Assembly: GCA_026770705.1 (NCBI GenBank)
Contig: JANJGN010000150.1
Coordinates: 868,001-932,000, forward strand
Direction: 5' to 3'
Length of the DNA stretch: 64,000 nt
Source of the DNA: Isurus oxyrinchus
Taxonomy: Eukaryota
Shown here piece after piece: positions 10,171-59,333 of this stretch (position 1 is the first letter of the stretch; each line of letters starts with the position of its first letter). The notes beneath the pieces are model-generated. The model was not told the origin of the DNA, did no database searches, and saw nothing but the letters and a program-made list of their open reading frames with translations. The position numbers were made by a program, and so were the translations under genes.

Positions 10171-10204
10171 TTGATGTCCTGTCTCTTCCCTTGTTGCCTT
10201 TCAG

Positions 10205-14764: not shown

Positions 14765-14769
14765 ACACA

Positions 14770-15995: not shown

Positions 15996-16064
15996 CAGGA
16001 AGCTCCTCTAGTTACAAACCAAAGCATCAAAGCAGAGCCAGAAGATCAGAAGAGACAGGCAGAG

Positions 16065-16157: not shown

Positions 16158-16349
16158 GTAAGCTAAGAGATGTCCCTCTGGGTGAGGTGTTTCTTGCACA
16201 TGACTCTACATCTACCACCCAGATAGACTGGTCTCTTCCGCAGTTTGATATTATTATGTTCGTGCCTTTAATATTGTCGCCCTCTATGAATTTAACATCA
16301 TTTCCTTCTGTCATTTCCCCTGAAATTCTCATTCTTGTTTTCAATCCCT

Positions 16350-17140
16350 CCTCAGCGACTCCCTATCTCTGTAACCTCCTCCAGCCCGTACAACCCTCCC
16401 TATCTCTGTAACCTCCTCCAGCCGCTACAACCCTCCCTATATCTGTAACCTCCTCCAGCCCCTACAACAATCCCCATCTCTGTAACTTCCTCCAGCCCCT
16501 ACAACTGTCCCTATCTCTGTTACCTCCTCCAGCCCCTACAACACTCCCTATCTCCGTAACCTCCTCCAGCCCCTACAACCCTCCCTATCTCTGTAACCTC
16601 CTCCAGCCCCTATAAACCTCCCTATCTCTGTAACCTCCCCCAGGCCCCACAACCCTCATGATCACTGTAACCTCCTCTAGACTCTACAACCCTCCCTATC
16701 TCTGTAACCTCCTCCAGACCCTACAACCCTCCCTATCTCTGTAACCTCCTCCAGGCCCCACGACCCTCAGAATCACTGTAACCTCCTCCAGCCCCTACAA
16801 TGCTCATGAACTCTATAACGTCCTCTCCACACTATAACTCTCCCTATCTCTGTAACCTACTGTGGCCCCTACAGCAGTATCTATTTTGGTAACCTCCTCC
16901 AGCCTCTACAACCCTCCTTACCTCTGTAACCTCCTCCAGCCCCCACAACCCCCCCCATCTCTTTAACCTCCTACAGCCCCTACTCACCTCCCTATCTCTG
17001 TAACCTCCTACAGCCCCTACAACCTTCCCTATCTCTGTCACCTCCTACAGCCTCTAGAACCCTCCCTATCTCTGTTACCTCCTACAGCCTCTACAACCCT
17101 CCCTATCTCTGTAACCTCCTCCAGCCGGAACAACCCTACC
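16350..17140 (+). repeat. About 37-bp tandem repeat (CTCTGTAACCTCCTCCAGCCCCTACAACCCTCCCTAT), L2-derived
   Basis: Visible tandem units. Also at 13460-13700, 30800-31500 (inside L2), 41040-41830 and 42565-42745. Confidence 0.9.
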
Positions 17141-17956
17141 TAAATCTCTGGTCTGAGTCTCACTCCAGGGAATTCAGTCCCATAACGTCGGTCAACACTC
17201 CGTGCTGAGGGAGTGCTGCACTGTCAGAGGGTCAGTAGTGTGGAAGTGTTGCACTATTGGAGGGACAGTACTGAGTGAGTGCTATACTGTCGGAGGTCAG
17301 TACTGAGGAAGTGCTGCTGTGTCGGAGGGTCAGTACTGAGGGAGCGCTGCACTGACGGAGGGACAATACTGTGGGAGTGCAGCACTATCGAAGGGTTAGT
17401 ACTGAGGGAGTGCTGCTGTGTCGAAGGGTTAGTACTGAAATAGAGCTGCACTGACTGAGGGACAGTACTGAGGGAGCGCAGCACTATCGAAGGGTTAATA
17501 CTAAGGGAGTGCTGCAGTGTCAAAGGGTTAGTACTGAGGGAGCACAACAATGTTGAATGAGACATTAAACTGAGTCCCCCGTCTGCCCTCTCGGGCGGGT
17601 GTGAAAGATCCCACAGCCACTATTTGGAGGAAGAGCAGGGGGTGTTCTCCCCGGTGTCCTGGGACCAATATTTATCCCTCAACCAACATCACCAAAAACA
17701 GATGATCTAGGCCATGATCACATTGCTATTTGTGGGATCTTGCTGTGCACAAATCAGCTGCCACATTTCCTACAGTGTGAGTGCACTTCAAAAACATCCT
17801 TCAGTGGCTGTGAAATGCTTTGGGATGTGGTGAAAGGCGTTAGAGAAATGCAAGTCTGTCCTCCTCCCCCTCTCTCTCCTGTACCTCTCTCTCTCTCTCT
17901 CCCTCTCCCTCAATCCTCCTCTCACTTTCTCCCTGATAAATTCTTTCTTTTTGCAG

Positions 17957-18013
17957 GTTGACACTGCTTTAGGTTCTTCGACGATTGAGAAATCTGTGGA
18001 TTCCCCGGACACG
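17957..18013 (+). CDS. Exon 2 (acidic pro-region) of the hepcidin-like gene
   Basis: Strong acceptor ttctttctttttgcag|, VDTALGSSTIEKSVDSPDT (57 nt, phase 0-0), donor ACG|gtaggt. Identical translation in arm B. Confidence 0.55.
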
Positions 18014-20243
18014 GTAGGTGGAAATTCATTCCTTATTTTAAGGTTTCTCCCTGCTCGTTTCTTCCACAGAAAGTTTTCTGATTTCAAGCTGATTTCAGTG
18101 GCAGTCTGTCTCGGTTATACTCAGGAGGCATGTTTGAAATCGAACCCCCCCCGCCCCCTTTTTTTGCAAAGCTGGGAAGATGCAATTCCAAGGAAGTGAA
18201 CATATCCCCACAGGAATTTTAAATGTAACCCACGCCGGGAATAGTGAGAGGGAGACTGATCCAGCCTGGGAGTGGGTTAAAGAGAGGCTGGGAGTCGAGA
18301 GTCGGAGAGAGGGATGGAATGGGGGAGGGAGGGATTGGAAGAGAGAGACAGAGAGTGGGATGGGGAGGGGTGAAAGGGAAAGAACATAGGTGGGAGAGAG
18401 TGACAGAGGGAGAAATTAAAGAAGAGATGCAGAGTGAGGGAAAGTGAAAAGGGAAGAGAGATTGTCCAAGAGAGAGAAATTAACAGAAAAGGGAGAGTTA
18501 CAGAGTGAGCGAAAGGTACAAAAATAGTGTGAGAGAGAGGGAGAGATACAGAGTGGGAGAAGGAGACAGGGGAGAGAGAGGGAGAGAGACAGGAAAAGGG
18601 AGAGAGGAGAGAAAGATTGGGAGAGAGGGCAATTGAGAGGAAGAGTAGGAGAGAGAGAGACAGGGAGAGGAGGAGTGGATGAGAGGAAGAGAGAGAGATA
18701 TGGAGCAGGAGAACACCTCCTCCGGTCCCGATGTTCCTCCAAAATCTCTGACATTACTGCATCTCCCGGGACCCCCTGATTCCCATCGCTCCACCATTGG
18801 TGGCCGTGCCTTCAGCTGCCTGGGGCCCTGAGCTCCGGAATACCCTCCCTTAACCTCTCTGCCTCTCTCTCTCTCTCTCCTTTAAGACGCTCCTTAAAAA
18901 CTGACATCTTTGACCAAGCTTTTGGTCACCTAACCCTAATATCTCCATATGTGACTCAGTGTTAGACTTCTCTCTGATTTACGCTCCGGTAATGTGGGCT
19001 GGGACATTTTGCAATATCAGAGGCGCTGTGTAAATGCAAGTTGTGAGTGTTATGTGGAAGGGAGACCCCAGGCGGCAGTCAGTGCCAGAGACTGGAGTCA
19101 TTGTGTGCAGACCGTATCTAATCTCTCCGAATGCACAATCGGTTTGACTGTCAGCCAAAGCACTTTTGATATTTGATCCTTCTAACTGTTTATAACCAGG
19201 CCTACATCAAACACCGAGAGGCTGGTTAATCAACAGACACCTTAGAGGATCGAGTGAAAGACAAAGAGGACTTGCATTTCTCTAGCGCCTTCCAACACAT
19301 CAGGACGTCCCAAAGTGTTTCGCAGACAATCAAGTGCTTTTTTTCTTTCATGTGAGGTCACTGATGTACTGTGGGAAAAGAATCAGCCATTGGCGCACAG
19401 TAAGATCCCACAGACAGCAGCATGATAATGACCAGCGCGCTCCCAGTACTTGCACTGCAAGTGTCAGTTCAGGATGTGTGCTCGATTCTCTGCAACTCTC
19501 AGCTCTGAGTTAAAAGGACCACCAGGCATAATTGAGAAATTACCGAGCTGTCGGAGGGTCAGTACCGGCGGGGGGGCAGGACAGTGGGAGGGTCAGTACT
19601 GAGGGGGTGCTGCATTGTCAGACGGTCAGTCTTGGAGTGCTGCACTGTCAGAGGGTCAGTACCGGCGGGGGACTGCACAGTCGGAGGGTCAGTACTGAGG
19701 GGGTGCTGCATTGTCAGACGGTCAGTACTGAGGGAGTGCTGCACTGTCAGAGGGTCAGGGCTAAGGGAGTGCTGCACTGATGGAGGGTCAGTACTGAGTG
19801 AGTGCTGCACTGTCAGAGGGTCAGTGCTAAGGGAGTGCTGCACTGTTGGAGGGTCAGTACTGAGTGAGCGCTGCACTGATGGAGGGTCAGTTCCGAGGGA
19901 GTGCTGCACTGTCAGAGGGTCAGTGCTAAGGAAGTGCTGCACTGTCAGAGGGTCAGTGCTAAGGAAGTGCTGCACTGTACAGAGGGAGTGTGAGACTGAC
20001 AGAGGGTCAGTAATGAGGGAGTGTGAGACTGACAGAGGGTCACTATTGAGGATGTGCTGCACAGTCGGGGGGGTCAGTACTGAGGGAGCACTGCACTGCC
20101 ATAGGTGGTTTCTTTCAGATGACATGAGAGAGAGGGTTAAACCCACTGAGACAAGACTGACACTAATGAGGCTGCTCAATAATTTAACCCTATCAGTGCC
20201 AGTAAATAATGTGAGGATGTCTTCTGTTTCCATTTCTCTGTAG

Positions 20244-20492
20244 GGTAAACAGAACGTGCTGATTACTGAGCCTCGGAACACAACCAGAGACACAACTAGT
20301 GAGGGGGAGACCCCAGCTCCCCGGGGTCTCTCTGAAGGTGCATTGGGAGGCGATGCTGGACATTGGCACATCGACAATCCCAACGGCCTTCTCTACGCCA
20401 ATCCCCAAGTATTGAGGATGTCCAGTGATGATGGGTCTGTCCACAGGGAAGAGGAGACGGAATACGCACAGATCAGGTTCGAGCATAACTGA
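20244..20492 (+). CDS. Orphan Siglec-like terminal cytoplasmic exon (degenerate ITIM LLYANP, ITSM-like TEYAQI)
   Basis: Phase-0 acceptor tttctctgtag|GGT AAA, 82 aa plus stop, paralogous to 55611-55859. AATAAA near 21023. Confidence 0.75.
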   Translation, partial: GKQNVLITEPRNTTRDTTSEGETPAPRGLSEGALGGDAGHWHIDNPNGLLYANPQVLRMSSDDGSVHREEETEYAQIRFEHN

Positions 20493-23144: not shown

Positions 23145-23393
23145 GGTAAACAGAACGTGCTGATTACTGAGCCCCGGAACACAACCAGAGACACAACTAG
23201 CGAGGGGGAGACCCCAGCTCCCCGGGGACTCTCTGAATGTGCAGTGGGAGGCAATGCTGGACATGGGAACCCCGACAATCCCGACGAGTTTCTCTACGCC
23301 AATCCCCAAGTCTTCAGGGTGCCCAGTGGTGATGGGTCTGTCCACAGGGAAGAGCAGACGGAATACGCACAGATCAGATTCAAGAGAAACTGA
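23145..23393 (+). CDS. Second orphan Siglec-like terminal cytoplasmic exon (FLYANP, TEYAQI)
   Basis: Same acceptor and phase as 20244, in frame with 21648-21729. AATAAA at 24001. 20100-21040 and 22990-24010 are tandem paralogs. Confidence 0.75.
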   Translation, partial: GKQNVLITEPRNTTRDTTSEGETPAPRGLSECAVGGNAGHGNPDNPDEFLYANPQVFRVPSGDGSVHREEQTEYAQIRFKRN

Positions 23394-24524
23394 GCGTGAA
23401 AAAGGGAGAGGGGGTCAGGAGGTTTGTGGATGGTGGCAGGGATGAAGATTCTTGGGAACATGAGACAACCCACTGGGGGAGAGGGGGAGAGAGGGAGGAA
23501 GGGACTGAATGGGTCTGTGGTTGGTGTGGTTTGGAATGAAATGTTTCCCCAGTGACGACTTGATGCTGAGTCATTGGGGACAGAGATTCAGTGNNNNNNN
23601 NNNNNNNNNNNNNNNNNNNNNNNNNNNNNNNNNNNNNNNNNNNNNNNNNNNNNNNNNNNNNNNNNNNNNNNNNNNNNNNNNNNNNNNNNNNNNNNNNNNN
23701 NNNNNNNNNNNNNNNNNNNNNNNNNNNNNNNNNNNNNNNNNNNNNNNNNNNNNNNNNNNNNNNNNNNNNNNNATTAACTGGCTTTGTGAAATCAGCTTTT
23801 TGTCACCTGTCCCTAATACCTCATTATGTGTCTCTGAGATGGATTTATATGTAGGTAACAATCCCCTGAAGAGATTTGGGACAGTTTGTTACATTAAGTG
23901 TGCCATATAAATGCAAGTTGTTGCAGGAAAGTTGATTTGCCTCGATTCAGAATGGTAATTCGGAGGGTCCATCGACAGGGCGTGTGTGCAACAGCCTCGC
24001 AATAAATGCATTGCACGGCAACAACTAAGCATGTCCTTTGATGCTGATGCATCCCAGTACTGCTGTGTGGACACATCACAACCGAGGGACTGCCTGACTG
24101 CGTGCAGCCAACATGGCCGAATAGTAATTAGCAGAAATGTGATGTCACTGAACTTTGTTGACATTTCAGAAAGTGCTTTCTGAATTCTGCGACTTGTTTA
24201 TTCTGTGATAGATTACAAGAAGCCTTTGCATTTTCTATAATATTACATTTATTGTCACAAGGGATTGAAATGCCCAGACACCACCACCTGGAAGTTCGCC
24301 TCCAAGACACACATCATCCTGATTTTGAAATATATCGCCGTCCCTTCACTGCCGCTGGGTCAAAATCTTGGACTTCCTTCTCTAACTGCATTGTGGGTGT
24401 ACCTACACCACATGGACTGCAGAGGGTCCGGAAGGCAGCTCACCACCACCTTCTCAAGGTAATTAAGGATGGGCCATAAATGCTGGCCTAGCCAGTGATG
24501 CCCACTTCCCATGGAAGAATGAAT

Positions 24525-25150: not shown

Positions 25151-25499
25151 AGTTTAGAAACTTGGTTCTTAAGCTAGTTTCTGTAGTGTGGAATCTCACC
25201 ATTCCCTCTTGCAGCTGCTGGCATTTGTGTTGTGCTAAATGGACTAGATCAATTGACAGACTTGCATTCTCCAGCCGGTGTAATGTTGGAGCTCCTTTGA
25301 AACTGCCAATGTTGTTGAAACTTTCTGCATATTTCAATGTTATGTCATGAACTGAGGTGAAAGGGTAGTACGTGAAAGTGGGACAAAAATAAATCCATTG
25401 GCTTTTGACCAGACCAGACAATCCTGGCAGTGGGTGGGGCCAGAAAATCCAACCCCTATGGGAGATTTTCAGTTTATTTGATGTGCCCAGAGAGATCAA

Positions 25500-28400
25500 T
25501 AAAGACAACAATCCATTATTTATTGGCAAGCCACGTCAGGATATGTGTGAGAGGTGGAATATCGATCACCGCTCCTAGTCTCGTCGTGTACATCATCGCC
25601 ATTTCCTGGTTTGTCAGTCACCACATGTCTAAGTTCCTGATGGGATACCGGATGGTCATTCTTATTGCTTGAAGGTTCCCCGTTGTGTAGGGTCTGTTTG
25701 GATCAGCCCACGGCTCTTTGTAGCTGCATCAGCCTTTGCTCTAGTGCCCTGCCGCTGTCAATGGCCCTTTCTGCCAAAAGCCTTGCAGGATTGGTGGAAA
25801 GCTGGGCATTTCCTTGGTGCCTGCAGAAGGCCACACCTTCCACACGTCTCACTAGGTTTGGATGTTCTAGTGAGTGTGTCAACAATTGATGTTGTACTGA
25901 GGACCTGTAAGCTACGTTGACCTGCGAGGATCACTTCGTAATTATGTCCATCCTTGAGTAGCTCTTCAATGCTATAGGTTTTGGTCTTATCTAGCAGATC
26001 TTTCTGGAAGGCCTCCATGGGAGTGGATGCGATCGCCAACTCAACAACTGTGTCTGCAGGCTCTGTGTTTGAAATCACAGTGCGTACCCTTTTCTCTACA
26101 TCGGCTGATGAAGTGGTCTATGGATTGTGTAGGCTGATGAAATGACATAAACTCTAGTTGATGAATATGGAGTATAACCTGATTCTGACCCTGTCTTCCA
26201 ATATCGTCCATATCTATTGGGGATCCTTTCGCTCTTCTGCTGTTAATGCTGATGTGTTCAGCCTGTGTAGACCTTCATTCCCAATCGCGAGGTGAATTTT
26301 TATGGCTTGTTCGTCTGGTTCAGTCACACCTGAATCAGGAAACCAGAGCTCTGTACGCTGTTTAAACATTCTGAATTCAGATAGTCGGTCAGCTCCATCC
26401 CAGTTCAAACTGGGGAATTTCGTGGAGATTCTGAAAATATTCCTTTGACCTTCCTTATCCTACAGGATCTGGGATGAGTGTCGCTTTAGCCCCTTTTGTG
26501 TGCTTTTCTGAAGCTCCGCCCACGAAGACGGGTTGTGGCAGGAACACACCACGGAGTAATGGAGTCTTTGTTTTTTATTCAATTTGCTGTTCAGCAATCT
26601 CGAAGCCGCCCGTTATAATCACTAACTTCTCTGGGCTGATTTTTATAATGGTTTTTGTGTGTTTGACTCTCCCTCGCTCACTATCGATCCAGCCCACACC
26701 CTGGTCACTCGCCTTCCCTGACTGAGCTAACCCGCTGCTGGTCCTGGCGATACACACTGTCCCACTCACTGACCTACAGGCTGTGTGCTGTAATCTCACC
26801 ACGAGGGATCCGTCTGCTCCCCAGCTCTTTACTTGAGCTCTTTCCCGTCACTGTGTCTTCAAAGGTTTCCTGAGCAGTCAGTACACTGCGATTTCAACCC
26901 TCTCTGATGCTGTGTCTCTGTTGTGGTCTGACCAAAGCGTCGAGGGTCATCTCATGTCATGTAGCTCGATCTAAGGCTGTTCACCACGTCATACCTGTAC
27001 TGAATCTTGCTGCCAGAATGTTTGGCCACCGCTGATCACCATGTTGTGTTTTTATAATGATATAAAGGCACCAGCCACTGATACGGAATTGGGTAAATAC
27101 ATTGTGGGTTCAGTTATTTAGAACAGGGACATGAGAACAGATATACAAGGATAGAAAGCTGGGAGACACCTGCGGCCAAACTGTGTGAGCTGTGTTCTGC
27201 TCACAGGCCAAAGTGAGACTTGGACTGGATGGTGTTATCATCCCAGCTGATGTTACTACTGGGCAAGTCAGATCCCAGGGTGGAACTCAGCTTGATAGGT
27301 CCTAACTTTTATTTTTTATTTAGGAATGTGGAGTGCAGCTACTGAACAGAGTCACAGGAGTCATCTGATGAACTTCTAACTAAAGAATAAAACATTTATT
27401 AAACTAGGAAAGACAAACTATATTACATTACTCCTTCACCCAGACCTATACCTTTGCAGATTCATAAGTAGAACACATGTTACAATAGCTATCTTATACT
27501 CTCATGTTCACAATAAGTGCACAGTCGATGTAAACCAATAGACGACCTGTGGTCAGGGACACCACATTCAGAAAGAAACTGACAGAACCCACTTGAAACA
27601 AATGCTATGTCTCCCTCCTCATCTGACCCTAGACGTTTGTTACACTGTGGGACCACCAGTCTCACTGAACTGAGATATCCATATGAGGGTTTCCAATCTC
27701 CACTCTCCAAGAACTCGCTTTGGAATCTTCTCCAACATGACACTTTCACTCAGACACCTTCCACAAGGGTCCACTTTCACTATTTCAAACTCTCCTTCCC
27801 ATGTTCCTGCCCCCTGGATCGCCACGTGCATTCAGCCTTCCTTCCACGCCCTGTCTCTCCAATGCTCAGCCGTGTCAATGGAACACCATGGCTTCACATG
27901 GCCGTAGTAATGAGTCACCAACCTGTGGTGTCTCCTAGGATCTTCTGGCTTCTCACAAGCCTATTTTGCTTTAGGTCTGTGTCCTGCTGCTTTCTCCCTT
28001 TATGCTTGAAGCCCTCTTCTGCTCCTCACTCTTAACTTCACTTAACAGGGCCTTTCCCAGATTTGACTAGAAGGTTTTCTTGGGCCCTTTCTCCTGTCAA
28101 ACTCTATAGTTTTGGCTTCATCTTTACTTTGGGACTGACTATCTGTCCCGCTCCTTTGCTGCTTCTCCTGGCAACTCCTTTCAACAGAACTGAAAGTACT
28201 TTTCTGTTTTTCTCGGTCTCTGTGGGTCTTTCCCTCTGGATCACTGTTGCTAGGCAACAGCACAGTTTATTCTACCTTGTGTTTGTTTTGACTTCCCTTC
28301 AAGAGTCATAAAAACTCATTAGATAGGTGGCTTCTTCCAAAGTGAAACCAAAACTCAAGTTCCCCCTTTTCAAAACACCCAAATACAGAAAGACAAACTA

Positions 28401-29172: not shown

Positions 29173-29559
29173 TTGGACTGTCACAAGAGTGGAAAGGCAA
29201 CACTCCACGAGAGGTGACAGCGCAGGAAGGTTCGTGTGTACAGATTCCATGTAATTACAGTTATCCAGCACGTTTAGTAGGGAAAGCACGTGTCGGAATC
29301 TGGTATGTGATATGGTACACATGGAATACATGGAATACAAGGTCTAGAGGGATCATAGCATTTCACTCCAAGGATCACAATCGCGAGTTAACACGGTTAC
29401 ACCATCGGACCCGGCTGTCTGGAGACCTGAAAGATGGCGAATGTTCCCTGATTATAAACAACATCAGACGGGAAGATGCAGGATATTATTATTTCAGAAT
29501 AGAATTTGACGGCAACAATAGTTACAGCTACTATCCTGAAACCCAGCTTCATGTTTCTG
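29173..29559 (+). CDS. Siglec-like V-set exon (V-a) with essential Arg
   Basis: ccccag|TT GGA ... TCT G|gtaagt, 387 nt, phase 1-1. AQEGSCVQIPC, RTRLSGDLKDGECSLIINNIRREDAGYYYFRIE. Confidence 0.9.
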
Positions 29560-29789: not shown

Positions 29790-31810
29790 TCCTCCCCACT
29801 ACACCTTCCACCCCTCACACTGTCCGTGTAAACCCCCGTCCCATCTCCAGCCTCTCTTTCCCCTCCAAAGTCCTTGAACGCGTTTCCATCTCCCGAATCC
29901 GTTCCCATCTTTCCCGGAACTCCATGTTTGAATCCCTCCAATGAGGTTCCCACCCCAGCCACTGTGCTGAAACAGCTCTTATCAAAGTCACAAATGGCAT
30001 CCTGTGTGACTGTGACAAAGGTCAACTTTCCCTCCTCGTCCTTCTCGATCTGTCTGCAGCCTTTGAAACGCTCGACCACACCATCCTCCTCCAACACCTG
30101 TCCACTGTCGTCCAGCTGGGTGGGACTGCTCTCCCCTGGCTCCATTCTTATCCAACTCATCGTAGCCAGAGAATCACTTGCAATGGCTTTGCAGCATCAT
30201 CTGAACAGTGTTAGTTTTCACCTGTCCACTGAGGATCCCCAGCTCTACCTCACCACCACCTCTCTCGACTCCTCCACTGCTGCTAAATTATCAGGCTGCT
30301 TATCCGACATCCAGTACTGGATGGGCAGAAATTCCCTCCAATTAAATATTGGAAAGACTGAAGCCATTATCTTCATTCCCCGCTCCAAACTCTGTTCCCT
30401 CGCTACCAACTCCATTCCTCTCCCTGACAGCTCTCTGAGATTGAAGCCAATCTGTTCACAGCTTTGTTGTCCCATTTGATCCTGAGATGAGCTTCCGGCC
30501 TCATATCTGCGCCCTCACTAACACCGTCTATTTCCACCTCCGTAACATCGTACGACTTCACCCTGTCTCAGCTCATCTGCTGCTGAAACCCTCATCCACA
30601 CCTTCATTACCTCCAGACTCGACTGTTCCAACACACGCTCTACACTCCATAAACTTGAGGCCATCCAAAACTGCTGACCCCGTCCTTACTCACACCAAGT
30701 CCCATTCCCTTATCACCCGCTCTGCTCGATGACCGAGAGTGGCTCCTGGTCAAGCAAAGTCTCAATGTCCAAATTTTCATCTTTGTTTCCTCACTATCCC
30801 TGTAATCTCCTCGTCCTCCTCCAGTACCTACAACCCTCCCTATCTCTGTAACCTCCTCCAGCCCCTACAACACTCCCAATCTCTGTAAATTATTTCAGTC
30901 CCTATAACCACCACTACCTCATAAACCTCTTCCAGCTCCAACAACGGTCCATTTCTCTGTAACCTTCACCAACCGCTGCAACAACCCCTATCTCTGTAAC
31001 ATCCTCCAGTCCCTACAGCACTCTCTATCTCTGTAACCTCCTCCAGTCCCTACAGCACTCTCTATCTCTGTAACCTCATCCAGTCCCTATAACCCCATCC
31101 TGTACCTACAAACCCCCTATCTCCATAACATTTCCCATTCCCGTCCAGCCTCTCTATCTCTGTAACTATCTTTTGCCCCTAAAGACTCCCTTTTACTATA
31201 AATTTCTCCAGTCCCTCCAAACCCCCTGTCTCTGTAACCTACTCAGGCCCCTAAAGCCTGCCTTACCCTGTAACCTCCACCAGTCCCTACACTGCCCCCC
31301 CTTTCACTGTAAGCTCCTCCAGCCCCTACAACCTTCCGTATCTCTGTAAACCCATCCTGCCCCTACAACCCTCCCTATCTCTGTAACCACCTGCATACTG
31401 TACAACCCTCCCTAGCTCTGTAACCTCCTCCAGCCTCTCCAAATTTTCCTAATTTGTAGCCTCTCTGCAGCCTCTGTACAAACTACAGCACCTACAACCC
31501 CCCGAGATCACTGCGCTCCTCCTATTCCAGACTCTTGACCATCACCGGATGCTATCGCTCCAAAATTACCGGCCGTGCCTTCAGTTCCCTGGGAACCTAA
31601 GCTCTGGAATTCCCACCCGAAACCGCTCCCTCTCTCTCTCTCTCTCTCTCTGTCTCTTTCTCTCTGTCTCTCCATAACACCGACATCTTCTGGCCAGCTG
31701 TCGCTAATATCTCCACATGTGTCTGGGTGACATACTTTGTTTTATGACGCTCCTGTGTAGCACCTTGGGGTGATTTGTCATGTTAAAGTTGTTGTGTAAA
31801 TATAAGTTGT
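29790..31810 (+). mobile_element. L2 LINE fragment (RT remnant, internal 37-bp array, 3' end)
   Basis: Frameshifted SKVLER / ETALIKVTNGILCDCDKG / VLLDLSAAFET.DHTILLQ motifs, and LQLNIGKTEAI. Confidence 0.85.
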
Positions 31811-33244: not shown

Positions 33245-33610
33245 CTGGACTGTCACAAGAGTGGAAAGGTGACACTCCACGAGAGGTGACAGCGCAGGAA
33301 GGTTCCTGTGTACAGATTCCATGTCACTACAGTTATCCATCGTGTCTGGAAAACCAACCGCGAGGTGGAGTCTGGTTTAATAATGAGGAACGGGGAACAT
33401 CGTCTGTAGCCTTTCACTCCAAGGATCACAGTCACGAGTTACCACGGTTCCACCATCGGACCCGGCTGTCTGGAGACCTGAAAGATGGTGACTGTTCCCT
33501 GATTATAAACAACATCACACGGGAAGATGCAGGACCTTATTTTTTCAGAATAGAATTTGACAATGGTCCGAGACATAACTATTACCCTGTAACCCAGCTT
33601 CACGTTTCTG
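33245..33610 (+). CDS. Siglec-like V-set exon (V-b) with essential Arg
   Basis: ccccag|CT GGA ... TCT G|gtaagt, 366 nt, phase 1-1. AQEGSCVQIPC, GDCSLIINNITREDAGPYFFRIE. Confidence 0.92.
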
Positions 33611-34338: not shown

Positions 34339-34635
34339 ATTTCACAGATAAACCCACGATATTCCCTGCTGAAATTATTGCAGGAAAGCGTGTGGATGTA
34401 AGCTGCACCTTCAACACAACGTGCAATGGAACAGCAGCACCTGTCTTAACCTGGGACACTCCCACTGACGTACCTGGATCAGTCTCAAACACTGTAACTC
34501 AGCATGGTGTCACTCTGACCTATACTTCTGTTCTGACCCTGATCCCATCACTCAAACACCACAGACACAATCTCAGCTGCAGAGTGAGATATCCATCTTT
34601 TTCATCGGAGCGGACCCTCGTACTAACTATGCAAG
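34339..34635 (+). CDS. Siglec domain-2 C2-set exon
   Basis: ctgttag|AT TTC ... CAA G|gtaagt, 297 nt. DFTDKPTIFPAEIIAGKRVDVSCTFNTTC...PVLTW...SVLTLIPSLKHHRHNLSCRV. The extra Cys matches the Siglec V-C2 interdomain disulfide. Confidence 0.92.
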
Positions 34636-35479
34636 GTAAGTACGGACACCCTTCATTCTACATCAGCACTCCCTCAGCGCTGACCCTCTGACAGTGCAGC
34701 CCGTTCTCAGTGTTCACATTCTCATGCCTCTCAAAGTGCTTCACTGTCGATAGAAGTTAACTGATCTTTATTTGATTGTTGCTGAATGAAGAGACAAGCT
34801 GTCTAAACTTTACATCTCACACACATTATTTTCCATGGCAACACCTCCTCCAAGTTCTCAGCTTTCCAGTGCCCATTTTTCACATGATGTCCATGTTCAT
34901 AATGGGGATTGCCTATGTAAACATCACGCTGTAGTTACACTCTCCCACCAGTGGTAGCACGGTAACACTTAACCCTTGCATCTCCAAGCTTTTCAAGCAA
35001 TTTCACTTCCTAATTTCCTACTATTCACCTCAACCATTCCCTGTGGGAGCGAGTTCCATATTCTCCCCTCTCTCTGGGTAAAGATTGGAACTGTTTATTA
35101 AGCGGGGGGTGTATGTCCGTGGGGGAGTCCATCCCGATCCTGCCCGATTCACACACACGGCTGAGATGGATTTTCACCCGGCACTAAACGTTTCCAGAAT
35201 TTTCTACAGCACAATCCTGTACACAGCGATGGAGAGAAACATTGGACAGAGAGTCCAACAGCACAATGATCCATTCTCACCAATGTTCCACGCTAAGGAG
35301 AAAGTTCCGATTGTCCACTCTTAGAGTGTTTACAATGAAAACATTCATTCCACATTGAATCCCAGTGGATGGGTCAATATTACAGCAAATGTTGCAGTGA
35401 TATGAAGCTTGATTGTTCAGCCAGAGTGAGAGATTGAAAGCGGAGAGTCAGTGATGATTTCTTTCTGTGTGTTCTCTAG

Positions 35480-35619
35480 ACAGTGGAGGAGAGATTCTGC
35501 ACGTGATCCTGATCCTGGGAATACGAGCTATGATATTCCTTGTGGCTGTGGTTATCACTATCACTGGAGTCTGTGTCTGGGAGAGACAAACAGTGAAAGG
35601 AAGTCGACAGACTGTTTGA
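35480..35619 (+). CDS. Terminal TM exon with intramembrane Arg and short Tyr-free tail (activating-type Siglec-like receptor)
   Basis: ttctctag|AC AGT..., in frame with the C2 exon: DSGGEILHVILILGIRAMIFLVAVVITITGVCVWERQTVKGSRQTV*. Arg codon at 35524-35526. AATAAA near 35687 and 36003. Confidence 0.85.
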
Positions 35620-38600
35620 AGCTTTGTACAGCAACAATCTGGTCAGTCAGTGCGGACAAATAACGTGTGATGTTGTGTTAAGTTGTAATAAAACTGGTCA
35701 GTGTCCTGGTTATAATCATCTCCGTATCATCGAGTCATTCCAGCAATGGAGGAGGACATTTGGCCCATTGAGTCTATGCTGTCTCTCTGTAAAGCAATCC
35801 ACTCAGTCCCATCCCCTGCTCTATCCCCGTATCCCTGCAAATTTATTTCCAATTTCCGTCCAATTTCCTTTTGAAATTGTTCATCGAATAGGAATGAACA
35901 GAAATGTGACGTTGCTAAACTCTGTTCTCTGATTGGAATGTGCTTTCTGAATGCTGCACCTTTTTCATGCTGCGATAGATTGTAAGAAGCATTTGGGTTA
36001 TGAATAAAATTACATTGATTAACTCAAGTGATTAAAATGCTCAGCCTGTTCTGTAGATATTTAAAGATTAAAATTCTTGTTTTGCTGCAAAATACTTGGC
36101 TCAAAGACATAGCTTCCTGTTGTCACGTTTTCCAATCAGATGAATTCCTCTGTCCATCTTTATAATAGAAATTTCCAATGTAAACATGTCACATTGTAAC
36201 TGCACACTCTTGCCAGTGGGTGGTGTGATACCAAAGCTGTCTTGCTGCAGAGAAACAGCGAGAAATATTCCTGTTGTGTGCATGAACTTCATGTTAGCAT
36301 GAGACACAGGCATCAGATGAAATTTTGTGCAATTTGTACAATGTTCTTTAGACAGTGCAGCACTCCCTCAGTTCAAACCCTCTGACAGTGCAGCACTCCC
36401 TCAGTTCAGACCCTCCGACAGTGCAGCACTTCCTCAGTTCAGACCCTCTGACAGTGCAGCACTCTCTCAGTTCAGACCCTCTGATAGTGCAGCACTTTCT
36501 CAGTTCAGACCCTTTGACAGTGCAGCACTCCCTCATTTCAGACCCTCCGACAGTGCAGCACTCCCTCAGTTCAGACCCTCCGACAGTGCAGCACTCCTTC
36601 AGTTCAGACCCTCCGACAGTGTAGCTCTCCCTCAGTTCATACCCTCCGACAGTGCAGCACTCCCTCAGTTCATACCCTCCGACAGTGCCGCACTACCTCA
36701 GTACTTCTCCGCCGATGCTGCCAGACCTGCTGAGTTTTTCCAGGTATTTCTGTTTCTGTTTCTGTTTTGGATTTCCAGCATCTGCAGTTTTTTTGCTTTT
36801 AGTGCTGGGCAGTTCCTCAGCAAGGATTCGGGCCACAAAACATTGCGAGTGCTGTGGGTCTGCGCCACGATTTAGAGAGCTGTGCTTGGCACGCCTATTC
36901 TAGTCCCAGTCCAGTGTGGTGGGGAGAGTCTGGCAGTCCAGGGTTGGTGGTGCCCAGCATGGTGTGAGTGACGTGGTCAGTCCCTCACACACGTCGGTCC
37001 TGGGGGTGGGTGGCTTGATACTAGGCCGCAGGTGGCACAATCCCAGTCAGGGGAGGCATCTGCAGCCTGTCAGTGGGGAGCAGGTAATATAGAGGGTAGG
37101 GCTGGGGGTGGGAATCGAGGGGGGCCGGTGGTCTCTGTAAGTCACAGTACAATGGGCCTCTAGTTGGAGAGAGGTCAGGTCTACATGGGGCATTGGGATG
37201 TCAACATCAGACAGTCTAGGGAGGAGGACTGGGATGTCAACCCCGAACACAATAAGATCAAGGATTAGAGAGGAAGGGAGGAGACTGATTGGAAGGAGGG
37301 GAATGTGCACATTATGCTCCTCCAGCACGATGGGAGGGACTGTGATGGTTACGGGGGTGGGGGGGAGTGACGTGTGAGGGGATAGAAGCTTACCTGGTGG
37401 TATTGCCTCAGCCTCATCCTTTTTCAAGCTGATCCAATGTCGCAGTTGAAGAATAAGCTACAAAACAAATTGGCAGGGGAGGTCTCCCAGGGCCTGTGGG
37501 AGACATCACCCACTGCATCTTCGGCCTGTTTGAAGGGGCACCCGAACAATTCCGGCTTTTCCAAATGATGAGGAAGACACAGCTGCACCCCGAGTCCCCT
37601 ACTGGGGATCCAGAAGGTTGCAATAGCGCTGCGAGGGACTCATGGGCTCCACAGTGACTCCCTAATTAGCGACTGGAAGGTTTATGTTCATTTATCTTTA
37701 TTATCCGTTCATATTGAGCCATGGAGCTCCTGATTTGTCACCTTTCTGTACCTCGTCCAATGCTTCTGTTATCAGGACTTCCACATCGATGTGAAAGAGC
37801 CATGATGATAGCAGACAGTCGCACAATGGGAATGGCACTAGGCCAGTGATCCAGAGGCCCAGGTGAATGCTTTGAAGGCACGGGTTCAAATCCCACCACG
37901 GCAGCTGGAGGAATTTCAATTTGATTAATCAATAAATTTAATTGATTGATACATTTTGTTGCGCATGCTTCAGTCTTGTCTTTTGCACTGGCGTGCTGGG
38001 CTCCTCCATCATTGAGGATGGGGATATTTGTGGAGCCTCCTCCTCCAGTTTAATTGTCCATGACTGGATGTGACTTCTGGAATGCGAAGCTAGTCTCAGT
38101 AATGGTGACCATTTTCAGTTTTTTACCAATGTCAGTTGAGGGATAAATGTTTGCCCCAGGAAAGTGGACATAACTCCACCCCATCCAGCCCCCATCACCC
38201 CCTCCACACATACCCCCCAACTCCTGACGCACTTCATCTAAATTGTGGCCATGGAATCCTCTATATCCACCTGAGAGGGCAGATTGGTTGCCCCAGTTTA
38301 ATGTCTTATCTGAAAGACAGCGCCTTCAACAGTGCAGCACCCCCTCAGTACTGACCCTCCGACTGTGCAGCACTCCCTCAGTACTGACTCTGACAATGCA
38401 GCACCCTCTCAGTACTGACCCTCCGACTGTGCAGCACTCCCTCAGTACTGACCCTCCAACAGTGCAGCACTCCCTCAAGACTGACCCTCCGACTGTGCAA
38501 CACTCCCTCAAAACTGACCCTCTGACAATGCTGCACTCCCTCAGCACTGACCCTCCGACTGTGCATCCCCCCGCCGGTACTGACCCTTCGACTGTGCAGC

Positions 38601-40264
38601 ACTCCCTCAAGACTGACCCTCTGACAATGCAGCACTCCCTCAGTACTGACCCTCTGACAGTGCAGCACTCCCTCAGTACTAACCCTCTGACAATGCAGCA
38701 CTCCCTCAGTACTGACCCTCCGACAGCTCGGTAATTCCTCAATTACGCCTGGTGGTCCTTTTAACTCGGAGATGAGAGTCGCAGAGAATTGAGCAGACAT
38801 CCTGAACTGACACTTGCAGTGCAAGTACTGGGAGCGCGCTGGTCATTATCATGCTGCTGTCTGTGGGATCTTACTGTGCGCCAATGGCTGATTCTTTTCC
38901 CACAGTACATCAGTGACCTCACATGAAAGAAAAAAGCACTTGATTGTCTGCGAAACACTTTGGGACGTCCTGATGTGTTGGAAGGCGCTAGAGAAATGCA
39001 AGTCCTCTTTGTCTTTCACTCGATCCTCTAAGGTGTCTGTTGATTAACCAGCCTCTCGGTGTATGATGTAGGCCTGGTTATAAACAGGTAGAAGGATCAA
39101 ATATCAAAAGTGCTTTGGCTGACAGTCAAATCGATTGTGCATTCGGAGAGATTAGATATGGTCTGCACACAATAACTCCAGTCTCTGGCACTGACTGCCG
39201 CCTGGGGTCTCCCTTCCACATAACACTCACAACTTGCATTTACACAGCGCCTCTGACATTGCAAAATGTCCCAGCCCACATTACCGGAGCGTAAATCAGA
39301 GAGAAGTCTAACACTGAGTCACATATGGAGATATTAGGGATAGGTGACCAAAAGCTTGGTCAAAGATGTCAGTTTTTAAGGAGCGTCTTAAAGGAGAGAG
39401 AGAGAGAGAGAGGCAGAGAGGTTAAGGGAGGGTATTCCGGAGCTCAGGGCCCCAGGCAGCTGAAGGCACGGCCACCAATGGTGGAGCGATGGGAATCAGG
39501 GGGACCCGGGAGATGCAGTAATGTCAGAGATTTTGGAGGAACATCGGGACCGGAGGAGGTGTTCTCCTGCTCCATATCTCTCTCTCTCTTCCTCTCATCC
39601 ACTCCTCCTCTCCCTGTCTCTCTCTCTCCTACTCTTCCGCTCAATTGCCCTCTCTCCCAATCTTTCTCTCCTCTCTCCCTTTTCCTGTCTCTCTCCCTCT
39701 CTCTCTCCCTGTCTCCTTCTCCCACTCTGTATCTCTCCCTCTCTCTCACACTATTTTTGTACCTTTCGCTCACTCTGTAACTCTCCCTTCCCTGTTAATT
39801 TCTCTCTCTTGGACAATCTCTCTTCCCTTTTCACTTTCCCTCACTCTGCATCTCTTCTTTAATTTCTCCCTCTGTCACTCTCTCCCACCTATGTTCTTTC
39901 CCTTTCACCCCTCCCCGTCCCACTCTCTGTCTCTCTCTTCCAATCCCTCCCTCCCCCATTCCATCCCTCTCTCCGACTCTCGACTCCCAGCCTCTCTTTA
40001 ACCCACTCCCAGGCTGGATCAGTCTCCCTCTCACTGTTCCCGGCGTGGGTTACATTTAAAATTCCTGTGGGGATATGTTCACTTCCTTGGAATTGTCTCT
40101 TCCCAGCTTTGCAAAAAAAGGGGGGGAGGGGGGCTCGATTTCAAACATGCCTCCTGAGTATAACCGAGACAGACTGCCACTGAAATCAGCTTGAAATCAG
40201 AAAACTTTCTGTGGAAGAAACGAGCAGGGAGAAACCTTAAAATAAGGAATGAATTTCCACCTAC

Positions 40265-40321
40265 CGTGTCCGGGGAATCCACAGATTTCTCAATCGTCGA
40301 AGAACCTAAAGCAGTGTCAAC
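40265..40321 (-). CDS. Hepcidin-like exon 2, arm B copy
   Basis: Same 57-nt exon and splice sites as 17957-18013. Confidence 0.55.
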
Positions 40322-42021
40322 CTGCAAAAAGAAAGAATTTATCAGGGAGAAAGTGAGAGGAGGATTGAGGGAGAGGGAGAGAGAGAGAGAGAGGTACAGG
40401 AGAGAGAGAGGGAGGAGGACAGACTTGCATTTCTCTAACGCCTTTCACCACATCCCAATGCATTTCACAGCCACTGAAGGATGTTTTTGAAGTGCACTCA
40501 CACTGTAGGAAATGTGGCAGCTGATTTGTGCACAGCAAGATCCCACAAATAGCAATGTGATCATGGCCTAGATCATCTGCTTTTTAGTGATGTTGGGTGA
40601 GGGATAAATATTGGTCCCAGGACACCGGGGAGAACTCCCCCTGCTCTTCCTCCAAATAGTGGCTGTGGGATCTTTCACACCCGCCCGAGAGGGCAGACGG
40701 GGGACTCAGTTTAATGTCTCATTCAACATTGTTGCGCTCCCTCAGTACTAACCCTTTGACACTGCAGCACTCCCTTAGTATTAACCCTTCGATAGTGCTG
40801 CGCTCCCTCAGTACTGTCCCTCCGTCAGTGCAGCTCTATTTCAGTACTAACTCTTCGACACAGCAGCACTCCCTCAGTACTGACCTCCGACAGTATAGCA
40901 CTCCCTCAGTACTGTCCCTCCAATAGTGCAACACTTCCACACTACTGACCCTCTGAGAGTGCAGCACTCCCTCAGCACGGAGCGTTGATCAACATTATGG
41001 GACTGAATTCCCTGGAGTGAGACTCAGACCAGTGATTTAGGTAGGGTTGTGGGGGCTGGAGGAGGTTACAGAGATAGGGAGGATTCTAGAGGCTGTAGGA
41101 GGTTACAGAGATAGGGAGGGTTGTAGGGGCTGTAGGAGGTTACAGAGATAGGGAGGTGAGTAGGGGCTGTAGGAGGTTAAAGAGATGGGGGGGTTGTGGG
41201 GGCTGGAGGAGGTTACAGAGGTAGGGAGGGTTGTAGAGGCTGGAGGAGGTTACCAAAATAGATACTGTTGTAGGGGCCACAGTAGGTTACAGAGATAGGG
41301 AGAGTTATAGTGTGGAGAGGACGTTATAGAGTTCATGAGCATTGTAGGGGCTGGAGGAGGTTACAGTGATTCTGAGGGTCGTGGGGCCTGGAGGAGTTTA
41401 CAGAGATAGGGAGGGTTGTAGGGTCTGGAGGAGGTTACAGAGATAGGGAGGGTTGTAGGGTCTAGAGGAGGTTACAGTGATCATGAGGGTTGTGGGGCCT
41501 GGGGGAGGTTACAGAGATAGGTAGGGTTGTAGGGGCTGGAGGAGGTTACAGAGATAGGGAGGTTTATAGGGGCTGGAGGAGGTTACAGAGATAGGGAGTG
41601 TTGTAGGGGCTGGAGGAGGTTACGGAGATAGGGAGTGTTGTAGGGGCTGGAGGAGGTAACAGAGATAGGGACAGTTGTAGGGGCTGGAGGAAGTTACAGA
41701 GATAGGGAGGGTTGTAGGGGCTGGAGGAGGTTACAGATATAGGGAGGGTTGTAGCGGCTGGAGAAGGTTACAGAGATAGGGAGGGTTGTAAGGCCTGGTG
41801 GAGGTTACAGAGATAGGGAGTGGCTGAGGAGGGATTGAAAACAAGAATGAGAATTTCAGGGGAAATGACAGAAGGAAATGATGTTAAATTCATAGAGGGC
41901 GACAATATTAAAGGCACGAACATAATAATATCAAACTGCGGAAGTGACCAGTCTATCTGGGTGGTAGACGTAGAGTCATGTGCAAGAAACACCTCACCCA
42001 GAGGGACATCTCTTAGCTTAC

Positions 42022-42114
42022 CCTCGACAAGGAGAAGAAGTGACTCAGCTGCAGGGAGAGCAGCAAAGTCAGAGTGAACAAGACAAGTTGCCATTTCATC
42101 TGGGAGCTTCCCAT
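42022..42114 (-). CDS. Hepcidin-like exon 1 (signal peptide), arm B copy
   Basis: MGSSQMKWQLVLFTLTLLLSLQLSHFFSLSR|gtaagc, with GGCGCC at 42328-42333 upstream. Confidence 0.6.
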
Positions 42115-43899
42115 CTCTGCCTGTCTCTTCTGATCATCTGGCTCTGCTTTGATGCTTTGGTTTGTAACTAGAGGAGCTTCCTGCTCTTATACCTGAAACA
42201 CTTGAAGGGGACAGCCGCGGGTGGGTAGCTGTGTGGTATCACACCCATTTCTGGATATTGCAGTGTCGATGTTCCCTGTCCCACTGGCCTGGGACCAGCA
42301 GTAAGGTCACTGGGACATTGACTGTCTGGCGCCGAGAACTATCAGTCCCTCCGCAACGCCCTTCACCTTGTGCAAATATGTGTTCATATTGACGCAACAC
42401 AACATAGCAAAAACATAGGGGCTGGTTCTTATGTCGGCAAATCAGGTGAACCGCACGCCCCCTAACCCCTTACTCCTCTCATTGCTACACTTACTATTTT
42501 ACAAATTGTGTGCGTTGCTTTTATTTTGGACAAGGGGCCTCGAGGGGGAACTGATTTACATTTTGTAACCTCCTCCAGCCCCTACAACACTCCTTATCTC
42601 TGTAACCTCCTCCAGCCCCTACAACCCTCCCTATCTCTGTAACCTCCTCCAGCCCCTACAACACTCCTTATCTCTGTAACCTCCTCCAGCCCCTGTAACC
42701 CTCCCTATCTCTGTAACCTCCTCCAGCCCCTGTAACCCTCCCCATCTCTTGAAGGGTTCTCAAAATTTTCAACTGTCAAGGAACCCTGGGTTGGTGAGCG
42801 TGAACCCTGACCTCTCCTAGTGCAATTTAGTTAGGGTTTGGGGGTGGGACAAGGGTAAGGGCATTAGTAGCGTGATTCTCCCTCGTTATGCCGTGTGTTC
42901 CCCATTCTTAACTCAGTGTACTTTGTAAGTCTGTATAATCTCAGTGTCATCCTAATGTTAGAAGTTCATTTGTGACTTCAGTAAACTCAGTTTTTGTCTT
43001 GCACCAAAACCAGTTGTCTGCTGCACTTTGTGACAAGCCCCGAATAAGTCCAAGGTCTAGAACCCAGGGAGTGGGAGCGATTCAGACGGCTCAGAAGTCG
43101 CAGGTGAAGCTGACACACACCACCACACCCTACAAGGGGCTGAATGGCCTCCTCCTGTTCCTGTGTAACGGGCATCAGTGGCTGAATGGCCTCCTCCTGT
43201 TCCTGTATAACGGACATAAGTGGCAGAATGGCCTCCTCCTGTTTCTGTGTAACAGTCTTGAGGGGGCTGAATGGCCTCCTCCTGTTCCTGTGTAACAGTC
43301 TCGAGGGGGCTGAATGGGCCTCTTCCTGTTCCTGTGTAACAGGCTCGAGGGGACTGAATGGCCTCCTCCTGTTCCTGTATAACGGACATAAGTGGCAGAA
43401 TGGCCTCCTCTTGTTCCTGTGTAATGGACATAAGTGGCAGAATGGCCTCCTCCTGTTTCTGTGTAACAGTCTTGAGGGGGCTGAATGGCCTCCTCCTGTT
43501 CCTGTGTAACAGTCTCGAGGGGGCTGAATGGGCCTCTTCTGGTTCCTGTGTAACAGTCTCGAGGGGACTGAATGGCCTCCTCCTGTTCCTGTGTAACAGT
43601 CTTGAGGGGGCTGAATGGCCTCCTCCTGTTCCTGTGTAACAGTCTCAAGGGGCTGAATGGCCTCCTTCTGCTCTGTAAACTTGTTGTGATACTGTAACTG
43701 CCTCTTTGGTTTCATTCAGCTGAATCTTCAGCTCTTCAGTCTCTTCCTTGTATCTCTTGCCTTCCTCCTGGAACATTGGACATGGTTGGGTCTTCCCTGC
43801 CAACTGTTTCTTCAGTTTGCTCAGAGCGGCACAGAATTCGCTTTCTTTCTCTTCAGGATTTTCCAGTGGAACCAACTCTGACCTGAGGGACACTTGCAG

Positions 43900-44611
43900 C
43901 CTGTGAGGATGCTTCAATTCTTCAAACTCATTCCGAGATACACTCTCATATTCCCCCAGCAACTCAGCAACTCCTCCAGTGAAACATTTCAGAGCAGCTG
44001 AGCTTGGTTTTCTGGAACCAGTCTCGGCCCAGAAGACTAGGGCCCTCACCTGTCGCTATGATCACTGGAAGCTGGGCTGTCTGCTGCCTGTAGGACACAG
44101 GTACTGGGATGAGGTCCTTTCCCTGTATGGATTCTCCAGTGTGTGTCTTCAGCTGATCCACTGTTGGCTCTAAATTCAGCGTCTGGGTTCCTTCATTTAG
44201 CTGTTTAAATGTGGGCTCTTCCACCACTGTGTCTGAGGCTCCCGTATCTGCCCCATTACTAGTGGCTGCCCATTCACTTGGGTTGTGATGGTTATAGGTT
44301 CAATTTTTACCACTGTGACATTGGACAGGGAATAGACATCGGTATCAGCAGCTTCAGGCTCTGTGATATTATTCACTTCCATCATGTTGGTGCACTGTCT
44401 GATGGGCTGTCTCGATTTCACCCTGCATTGCTTTATTACCCGCCCCTTTCTTGTGGCAGTGATGGCATTCTGCCCCCTTGAACCTGCAGGTGTCCAGTAC
44501 GAACTCACTCCCCCCCACATCGAGAACAGGCCAACTTCGGAGTTGCTGCTGAAATACTCCCACGAAGCCTTTTAGTTTCTGGAGCGGCAGAGACTGTCTC
44601 TCGCTTGGCGG

Positions 44612-44644
<33 letters not shown>

Positions 44645-45043
44645 GTTTGAGCCTCACGCCCGGTGGTTGGTTCCTGTCCCAGCTGAGGACTGGTGCCATG
44701 TTGTACATCCTGTAAATCCCGCCAGTCTCTCCCAGCACTTTCCATGCCTGGCGCTATTTCCATGGTGCGCTTCAAATCGATGTCGGCATCTGCGAGTAAA
44801 CGGCTCTGAATGGCGTTGGGGTGAACGACACAAACCAATCGGCCCCGCAACATGTCATTGAGTGTGTCTCCGAGGTCCCAGTGCTCAGTCACCTGCTTCC
44901 ACTTCACTGTATAGGTTGCGATGGACTCTCCCGGGGCCCTTACTCTGGAGTTAAACTTAAACCTCTGCATTATTACCCACGGCTTCAGCTGAAAATACAT
45001 CTTCATGAGGACGACTAATTGGTGAAAAGATTTAGAATTGGGT
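43900..45043 (-). mobile_element. Gypsy gag-pro remnant, arm B copy
   Basis: Reverse complement of 10495-11630. Confidence 0.9.
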
Positions 45044-45333
45044 GTAATACACGTCACTGTCTTCAGCTCTGAGACTGTCAATCCTCACCAAACAATTCTT
45101 CCCTTCCAAGTCGCCGATTATTTTAGCACGTCCCACGAACGTGGCCATCCCATAATTGGGATCTTTGGTGTATGTGATGGTATATTTCCATCTATACCAA
45201 TATTTATACCAAGCTCCGTGCAGTGCTGTGTAAGAGTGGGAAGGAAAGTCAAAGCTACACGGAATAACCACACAAGAGCTGCTGATGGCCCTCCGAGGCA
45301 GCGCCTTCATAGACCATCCCTCTGACGTCACTC
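45032..45333 (-). CDS. Truncated Siglec/MAG-like V-set exon, arm B copy
   Basis: GVTSEGW...NCLVRIDSLRAEDSDVYYTQF*, phase-1 acceptor intact. Confidence 0.75.
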
Positions 45334-46153
45334 CTGAAAGGCAACAAGGGAGGGGACAGGACATCAAAAAGCAGAATATTACTTCAATGGAGAGAGTCTA
45401 CAGAATGCGACACAGAGGGATCTGGGTGTCCTTGTACATGAATCACAGAAAGTCAGCATTCAGGAACACCACGAAATGAGGAAGGCAAGTGGAATGTTGG
45501 CCTTTATTGCAAAGGGATGGAGTATAAAAGGAGGGAAGTCTTGCTACAACTGTACAGGGCGTTGGTGAGATTGTATCAGGAGCAGTGTGTACAGTTCTGG
45601 TCTCCTTACTTAGGGAGGGATAGACTCTGCATTGGAGGCAGTTCAGAGGAGGATCACTGGGCTGATTCCTGGGATGAAGGGGGTTTGTCTTATGAGGAAA
45701 TGTTGAGCAGGTTGGGCCCTGTATCCATTGGAGTTTAGAAGAATGAGAGGTGATCTTATTGAAACATATAAGATTCTGAGGTGGTGGGGGGTTTGACAGG
45801 GTCGATGCTGAGGGGATGTTACCCCTTGTGGGAGAATCCTGTGAAGCAATAAGGATGTTTTACTGCATTAAAGGTGCTATATAAATGCACTGTCATTCCT
45901 ATTGAAACAAGCTCTCTGATGCACAAACAGAAAATGCTGGAAAAACTCAGCCGGTCTGACAGCATCTGTGGAGAGAGAAACAGAGTTGGTGTTTCGAGTC
46001 CGTATGAGGCTTTTGCTTTTGCTATATTCTCTGACTCGCTAATCACTCACTCTCTGTGTGATCACTAACCCTGTTCTCTAAAATTAAATGTTCACTTCCT
46101 CACTCCAGGAAAGAATCCAATTCCCTGAGTTCCGATCAGTAATGAATTTGTAC

Positions 46154-59295: not shown

Positions 59296-59333
<38 letters not shown>

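Follow-up and report, generated by a model that had tools for sequence, protein, structure and literature searches.

An arginine-anchor terminal exon of a likely activating Siglec-like receptor class in the shark Isurus oxyrinchus, found in a copy without its leader

Paired receptors of the Siglec type are known from primates, in which Siglec-5/-14 and Siglec-11/-16 form two pairs. Of the activating members, Siglec-14 uses an Arg and Siglec-16 a Lys as the basic anchor residue. Short-tailed receptors with a basic residue in the membrane anchor signal through ITAM adaptors and have twins with an ITIM (PMC13358205, PMC6514059, PMC6288428). Mammalian activating Siglecs couple to DAP12 (PMC13358205, PMC6288428, PMC7226832), and Siglec-15 uses a Lys (PMC7226832). 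In a review of natural cytotoxicity receptors, NKp46 and NKp30, whose anchors have an Arg, partner with FcR-gamma or CD3-zeta, and NKp44, whose anchor has a Lys, partners with DAP12 (PMC6514059). An NxxR motif marks the tested FcR-gamma-coupled anchors (PMC2413239).

A study of teleost Siglecs described four Siglecs in fish and an absence of CD33-related Siglecs, and does not use the word shark (PMC7226832). A 2014 survey reports no FcR-gamma in cartilaginous fish (PMC4016189), and PMC8455134 and PMC4536121 mention Siglecs once each. We found no account of a shark Siglec cluster in the literature, although subscription papers or supplements could hold one. Public databases already carry automatic Siglec-like names on relatives of the genes described below.

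In this study, we analyzed a 64,000-nucleotide stretch of an Isurus oxyrinchus contig (the window), which contains a member of a large Siglec-like family. This family shares with the primate pairs a Siglec-type V-set domain with an F-strand Arg, an activating member whose anchor holds a basic residue and whose short tail is free of ITIMs, and a linked inhibitory twin with an ITIM, an ITSM-like motif and a near-identical ectodomain. As in primates, the activating member is often null (PMC6288428, PMC13358205). Unlike the two primate pairs, the shark family has hundreds of copies, each of its genes has between 1 and 6 V exons in tandem and from 1 to ~25 of the C2 type, and there is a third tail class, which is uncharged and ends in YxN. 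With Xenopus XFL and with LILRA, PIR-A, NKp46 and GPVI (PMC2413239), it shares a large birth-and-death cluster of paired Ig receptors with many fragments, domain exons combined with two anchor types, and an anchor whose Arg lies toward the N terminus. However, the ectodomains of those receptors are of the FcR/KIR type, whereas that of the shark family is of the Siglec type; their anchors read NxxR and have been shown to couple to FcR-gamma, whereas the shark anchor reads LGIR and its coupling to FcR-gamma is a prediction. Finally, a basic anchor residue, adaptor coupling (again predicted for the shark) and occurrence as a non-mammalian Siglec are common to the shark family, Siglec-15 and the four conserved fish Siglecs (PMC7226832), but Siglec-15 combines a Lys with DAP10/12, the shark family has an Arg, and V2 of the window gene scores 38 bits to Siglec-15 vs 52-55 bits to Siglec-5, sialoadhesin and MAG. 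By analogy, the family likely works like the primate paired Siglecs.

Table 1. Features of the Siglec-like gene in the window
Feature	Position	Strand	Evidence
Distal Siglec-type V-set exon (V1), open, YYFR Arg, no in-frame Met	29173..29559	+	Pfam; V-to-V contig joints
Membrane-proximal Siglec-type V-set exon (V2), open, YFFR Arg	33245..33610	+	Pfam V-set, Ig_CD22; PDB matches
Open C2-set Ig exon, in phase 1 on either side	34339..34635	+	Pfam C2-set_2, E=2.7e-9; joints to V2 and TM
Terminal exon with short stalk, Arg-bearing hydrophobic anchor, tail of 12 aa and stop	35480..35619	+	Sequence; contig joints; homologous gene models
Anchor Arg codon CGA	35524..35526	+	Sequence; paralogue codon counts
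Candidate polyadenylation signal AATAAA	35687..35692	+	Sequence only
Rearrangement junction, 5/6 bases common to both sides	25176..25181	.	Comparison with paralogous segments

The initial annotation had proposed a transmembrane exon missed by the open-reading-frame track and read in phase 1 from the C2 exon, and splice sites and contig joints bear this out (Table 1). The C2 exon ends in ATG CAA G/GTAAGT at 34635 (phase 1), and the acceptor AG of the anchor exon, at 35478-79, is preceded by a pyrimidine tract. The sole donor-like match in or just 3' of the anchor exon sits within the candidate AATAAA at 35687. With GAC as the junction codon, the exon translates in phase 1 as SGGEILHVILILGI-R-AMIFLVAVVITITGVCVW-ERQTVKGSRQTV-stop. 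The sequence also agrees with the proposed hydrophobic stretch with Arg, tail and stop: 29 mostly hydrophobic residues have the Arg as the 11th, and the tail is free of tyrosine and ends at a TGA (35617-35619). Among contigs from public runs of guessed RNA type, the joint 34635->35480 (GT..AG) was present in 4/4 runs of one sample and also in 4/4 runs from 4 studies and two organisms, with run X1 common to both sets. The contigs overlap this joint by 21-44 letters on the shorter side and are paralogues or relatives of 85-90% likeness or more, not necessarily the window copy; at position 35530, all covering contigs (4/4 runs) have G where the window copy has A. V2-to-C2 and V-to-V joints are also seen in contigs of one sample. 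These data confirm 35480-35619 as a spliced terminal exon, in phase 1, of a Siglec-like receptor family. We discarded an open frame at 35481 (QWRRDS...) that overlaps the exon, as it disagrees with the phase-1 donor and with the joints seen in contigs. When the anchor exon was used as a query, neither PDB nor Pfam gave a match.

Just 5' of the anchor acceptor lies an exon-like remnant (35227-35426, + strand; AG, phase 1, ~66 codons), which contains a stop in 18/18 copies listed. By eye it resembles part of the catshark model P0003, and BLAST gave nothing. It may be what is left of the gene from which the anchor exon came.

The proposal that the ectodomain is of the Siglec type is in accord with the Pfam Ig_CD22 match and with PDB matches in which the Arg and the cysteines align. 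The best PDB matches of V2, at 50-55 bits, are Siglec-5 (54.9), sialoadhesin (52.7), MAG (51.7), Siglec-10, Siglec-8 and CD33, and Siglec-15 scores lower. The Arg of the YFFR motif, in the F strand, aligns with the Siglec-5 Arg. We surveyed 1.26 Mb of contiguous sequence, i.e., 464 kb of contig C150 (window included) and 800 kb of contig C52, in which the F-strand Arg is present in 15/15 proximal and 15/19 distal V exons of the Arg-anchor class. Loss of the sialic-acid Arg confined to activating genes was looked for in V exons and was not seen. CVQIPC and DCSL of the V domain align with Siglec-5 cysteines, and the C2 domain carries CTFNTTC; presumably, these cysteines form an intra-sheet B-E pair and an extra inter-domain link between V and C2. 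The PDB matches of the C2 domain (nectin-4, MAG, CD33) are all weak. When 10 proteins were looked up, the nearest named non-shark proteins were CD22/MAG-like models of paddlefish and turtle. V2 also has a codon for Cys in PSCLENQ, an additional B-C-loop cysteine that occurs in many membrane-proximal V exons.

Relatives outside Isurus are found in cartilaginous fish. The named proteins among 115 longer homologues of the V domain are all from sharks, rays and skates, and the closest (91%) are from lamniform sharks. Seven of the 115 have an Arg anchor, each reading LGIRA and none from a ray; in many of the rest the anchor is uncharged and LLYANI and TEYAQI motifs are present, or the tail terminates in YxN. 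With the anchor as query, 9 proteins were retrieved from Carcharodon, Scyliorhinus and Chiloscyllium, each of which has the Arg, and the LGIRA anchor ends database gene models in these three genera. The Arg is conserved over three shark orders, and the residues adjacent to it differ. Relatives in rays (P0103, P0104) have short tails and no charge in the anchor. Four automatic Chiloscyllium models (P0259-P0262) carry the Arg anchor on a different ectodomain and are named CD22-, sialoadhesin- or CEACAM5-like (CD22/sialoadhesin/CEACAM-like ectodomains). Since P0262 has Siglec-type V motifs and all four are automatic models, they do not establish that the anchor occurs in an unrelated family. These models suggest that the Arg-anchor exon may be a portable activating exon.

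Genome-wide pattern searches in Isurus gave 227 matches for the Arg anchor, 531 for C2 and 801 for V exons, and haplotype duplicates may inflate these totals, as 26/60 loci match a partner, located on the same contig or elsewhere, at >=99.5% identity over 3.1 kb. Among the matches listed, 65 Arg anchors lie on one 4.17-Mb contig, and at least 150 matches to the uncharged anchor lie on the same contigs as Arg anchors. Arg-anchor genes are interspersed with ITIM-tailed ones; the 1.26 Mb surveyed contain 21 Arg, 20 ITIM-type and 11 third-type anchors, and genes there have 1-6 V exons and 1 to ~25 C2-type exons each. Anchors of the third class, seen on C150/C52, are uncharged, are followed in homologues by a tail with YxN at its end, and are used with the same V and C2 exons. 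A crude screen scored 8 of the 21 Arg-anchor units as complete, one of them carrying Gln in place of the Arg; 6 were damaged and 7 had no leader. Of the 20 ITIM-type units, 12 were complete, 4 damaged and 4 leaderless.

Ectodomains of Arg-anchor and ITIM-tailed genes are as alike between the classes as within them: C2 identity is 98.1% between the two and 98.2% within each. Of the 78 near-full V exons, 72 entered a tree (one short exon and 5 unassigned ones were omitted). The classes are intermixed on it: the Arg class needs 16 label changes, and well-supported branches force 8 or more of them. Exchange between classes is nevertheless incomplete, because the labels are more clustered than when shuffled (0/500 shuffles as low for the Arg class). 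The V proteins are diverse (77/78 distinct), and their variation sits in three loops (pN 0.245 vs 0.044), where pS rises in parallel. Pooled NG86 estimates of pN/pS are 0.60 for V loops, 0.57 for framework and 0.70 for the anchor exon; values are <1 everywhere, with no diversifying or positive selection on the V loops by this pooled measure, and constraint on the anchor exon is only weak. We infer that the family evolves via duplication, exon exchange and loss.

The basic anchor residue had initially been read as a docking site for ITAM adaptors. This reading stood in part: at the level of the family, the paired ITIM genes and adaptor-like exons in the genome speak for an activating class. We think it probable that the Siglec-like class whose spliced last exon is studied here activates immune cells by pairing its anchor Arg with an ITAM adaptor, and that this copy, being leaderless, is non-functional. 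In intact copies, the V domains would bind sialylated or pathogen ligands, the Arg would pair with an acidic residue of an adaptor dimer, and the signal would pass through the adaptor ITAM and counter the inhibitory twins.

The depth of the Arg in the membrane bears on this model. By themselves, the 18 residues that follow the Arg are sufficiently hydrophobic to span, which could place the Arg at the outer surface or edge of the membrane; the class could then comprise non-signalling decoy, adhesion or uptake receptors. Consistent with such a role, the Arg-free window of 19 residues (16-34) is hydrophobic (mean hydropathy 2.26), Gln occupies the anchor position in 5 paralogues, one of which is otherwise a complete gene, and the short-tailed ray relatives lack an anchor charge. 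On the other hand, the Arg follows a run of ten residues that are mostly hydrophobic and is part of the best window (2.83), it has been kept across the three shark orders despite its CpG codon here while neighboring residues vary, and an arrangement with ITIM twins is the standard pattern of paired receptors. We regard a non-signalling role as quite unlikely.

Given an activating class, FcR-gamma is somewhat likelier than DAP12 as the adaptor. The Arg lies in the N-terminal half of the anchor, a position that favors FcR-gamma or CD3-zeta; the lack of an NxxR motif and the use of DAP12 by activating Siglecs of mammals point the other way. The genome contains an FcR-gamma-like anchor exon, whose best PDB match is FcR-gamma (45 bits vs 36 bits for CD3-zeta); a catshark protein with this annotation shares 89% identity with it, and the anchor exon and the one that follows it were seen twice. 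ITAM exons of this gene were not found within 30 kb, and an ITAM family search of the genome gave no match but is uninformative, its control also matching nowhere. Coupling to DAP12, as in Siglec-14, -15 and -16, and not to FcR-gamma is a minority possibility to be taken seriously. It accords with adaptor usage in mammals (PMC13358205, PMC6288428, PMC7226832), with the LGIR anchor and with the Arg of Siglec-14, but it is opposed by the association of Arg anchors (NKp46, NKp30) with FcR-gamma or CD3-zeta and of a Lys anchor (NKp44) with DAP12 (PMC6514059) and by the FcR-gamma-like exon itself. A DAP10 family search yielded weak matches only, none of them convincing; the two best were not adaptor-like when translated. 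Complex predictions of the anchor exon with two FcR-gamma-like anchors scored 0.09 and 0.07 (mark 0.34) and carry no weight. Two FcR-gamma-like anchor exons (L102 and L103, on C1723 and C1648) lie on small repeat-rich contigs, and one CD3-zeta-like anchor exon (L101) was seen on C18.

It had further been suggested that the CGA codon of the Arg could easily become TGA and thereby yield null or secreted alleles. The codon is indeed CGA, but the suggestion found no support. Among paralogues with exact flanks, genome-wide, the first base of the codon is never changed, TGA occurs in 0 and CAA, the opposite-strand transition, in 5; the first 100 of 227 listed comprise 98 CGA and 2 CAA. Across 47 aligned copies, the CpG of this codon shows 0 C-to-T and 1 G-to-A changes, a His CpG shows 12 synonymous C-to-T changes, and the tail CGA shows none. 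No change at 35524-26 was seen in the 40 rows listed of 66 from four runs. CpG changes do occur, as shown by the five CAA copies and by TGA at the control tail CGA in 1 among the first 100 of 181 listed, but they are rare at both the anchor and the tail CGA. Selection against TGA at the anchor codon was considered and set aside: 0 TGA vs 5 CAA is suggestive, yet the tail control is equally quiet. The five CAA copies may share one origin. Of the Arg-anchor units, 13/21 are broken by other means. It is very unlikely that this codon is a hot spot giving frequent null or secreted alleles, and null copies appear to arise mainly by deletion, frameshift and stops in V exons, not by mutation of the anchor CGA.

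The window copy seems to be a case of deletion. At the junction 25176-25181, the left side corresponds to sequence 2.93-2.96 kb upstream of the leader in 4/4 partners checked, and the right side to a sister-gene intron, 3' of the upstream V-C2 unit in three sister loci. The sister leader is visible in C385 and C52, and that of the third sister is outside the fetched stretch. The leader and the upstream V-C2 are thus missing from the window copy, and ~3 kb upstream of the leader are also gone. The junction, which rests on one assembly, is spanned solely by the window copy within the 1.26 Mb. The paralogue leader exon had 0 matches in the window at <=3 mismatches and none by BLAST (23594-23772 masked), and V2, like V1, has no in-frame Met. 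The sister on C385 is 99.1-99.2% identical over 11 kb, with V1, V2 and anchor proteins identical to those of the window copy, and is complete: leader, V, C2, V, V, C2 and anchor are open, with GT/AG at all exons checked. A signal peptide is present in this sister and in the 8/21 complete Arg-anchor units, and the leader exon that would provide it is absent from the window copy. By comparison with the sisters, the window copy looks like a 5'-deleted derivative without the leader and the expected promoter region, whose position is assumed. It is probably null by deletion and non-functional, since the leader and ~3 kb upstream have been removed and a complete sister of 99% identity exists.

We also considered a live gene with a leader outside our view, owing to misassembly, a remote exon or read-through. 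All exons of the window copy (V1, V2, C2, anchor) are open with intact splice sites and thus fit a live gene or a young dead one, and in the sisters the V-V-C2-anchor block takes its leader from the upstream leader-V-C2 unit. Missing RNA for the window copy is weak evidence, since the runs are probably from other individuals or species. A live gene is nonetheless unlikely: the paralogue leader is unmatched in the window; the nearest leader on the same strand in the 1.26 Mb lies ~153 kb upstream and is separated from this copy by ITIM terminal exons and genes on the opposite strand; the junction is precise to the base and joins two recognizable paralogous segments; and the masked 23594-23772, whose letters were unseen, is colinear with an ITIM-gene 3' flank, where paralogues have no leader.

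The exon is an ordinary family member in a probably dead copy and its relatives are already automatically named, so the significance lies at the level of the family. If a cluster of hundreds of paired activating and inhibitory Siglec-like genes and an FcR-gamma-like gene are truly present in a shark genome, this design for sensing self and non-self sugars would date to early jawed vertebrates or have arisen twice, and the cluster would supply defined constructs to learn which adaptor is used. A broader scenario, to which we give somewhat less than an even chance, is that sharks possess a paired Siglec-like repertoire independent of that of mammals, comprising several hundred genes in which heads of 1-6 V domains (with three variable loops) are shuffled onto three tails. 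The activating tail in this scenario would be a portable Arg-anchor exon coupled to FcR-gamma and not DAP12, and deletions like 25176-25181 would be segregating nulls, a parallel to human SIGLEC14-null.

Several other features of the region were observed. An inverted duplication (9667-19945 / 38329-45872, pieces 90-96% identical) flanks a block containing this gene and two orphan ITIM exons, and could favor inversion. These orphan terminal exons of ITIM-type genes (20376-20489 and 23277-23390, + strand) lie upstream of the gene, and the 3' part of a complete ITIM-type gene (55614-64000, - strand) converges on it. Introns and flanks contain fragments that we take, from their motifs, to be LTR-retrotransposon gag-like or LINE reverse-transcriptase-like (25758-26459, -; 29945-30732, +; 43645-45084, -). 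At C150:1002776-1051002, ~25 tandem copies of a leader exon with ~1.75-kb spacing precede a gene with 24 C2-type repeat exons. A truncated V-set fragment of another Siglec-like type, ~30% identical to V2, occurs at 10240-10494 (+) and 45044-45298 (-), and fragments of this type number 13 copies in the 1.26 Mb.
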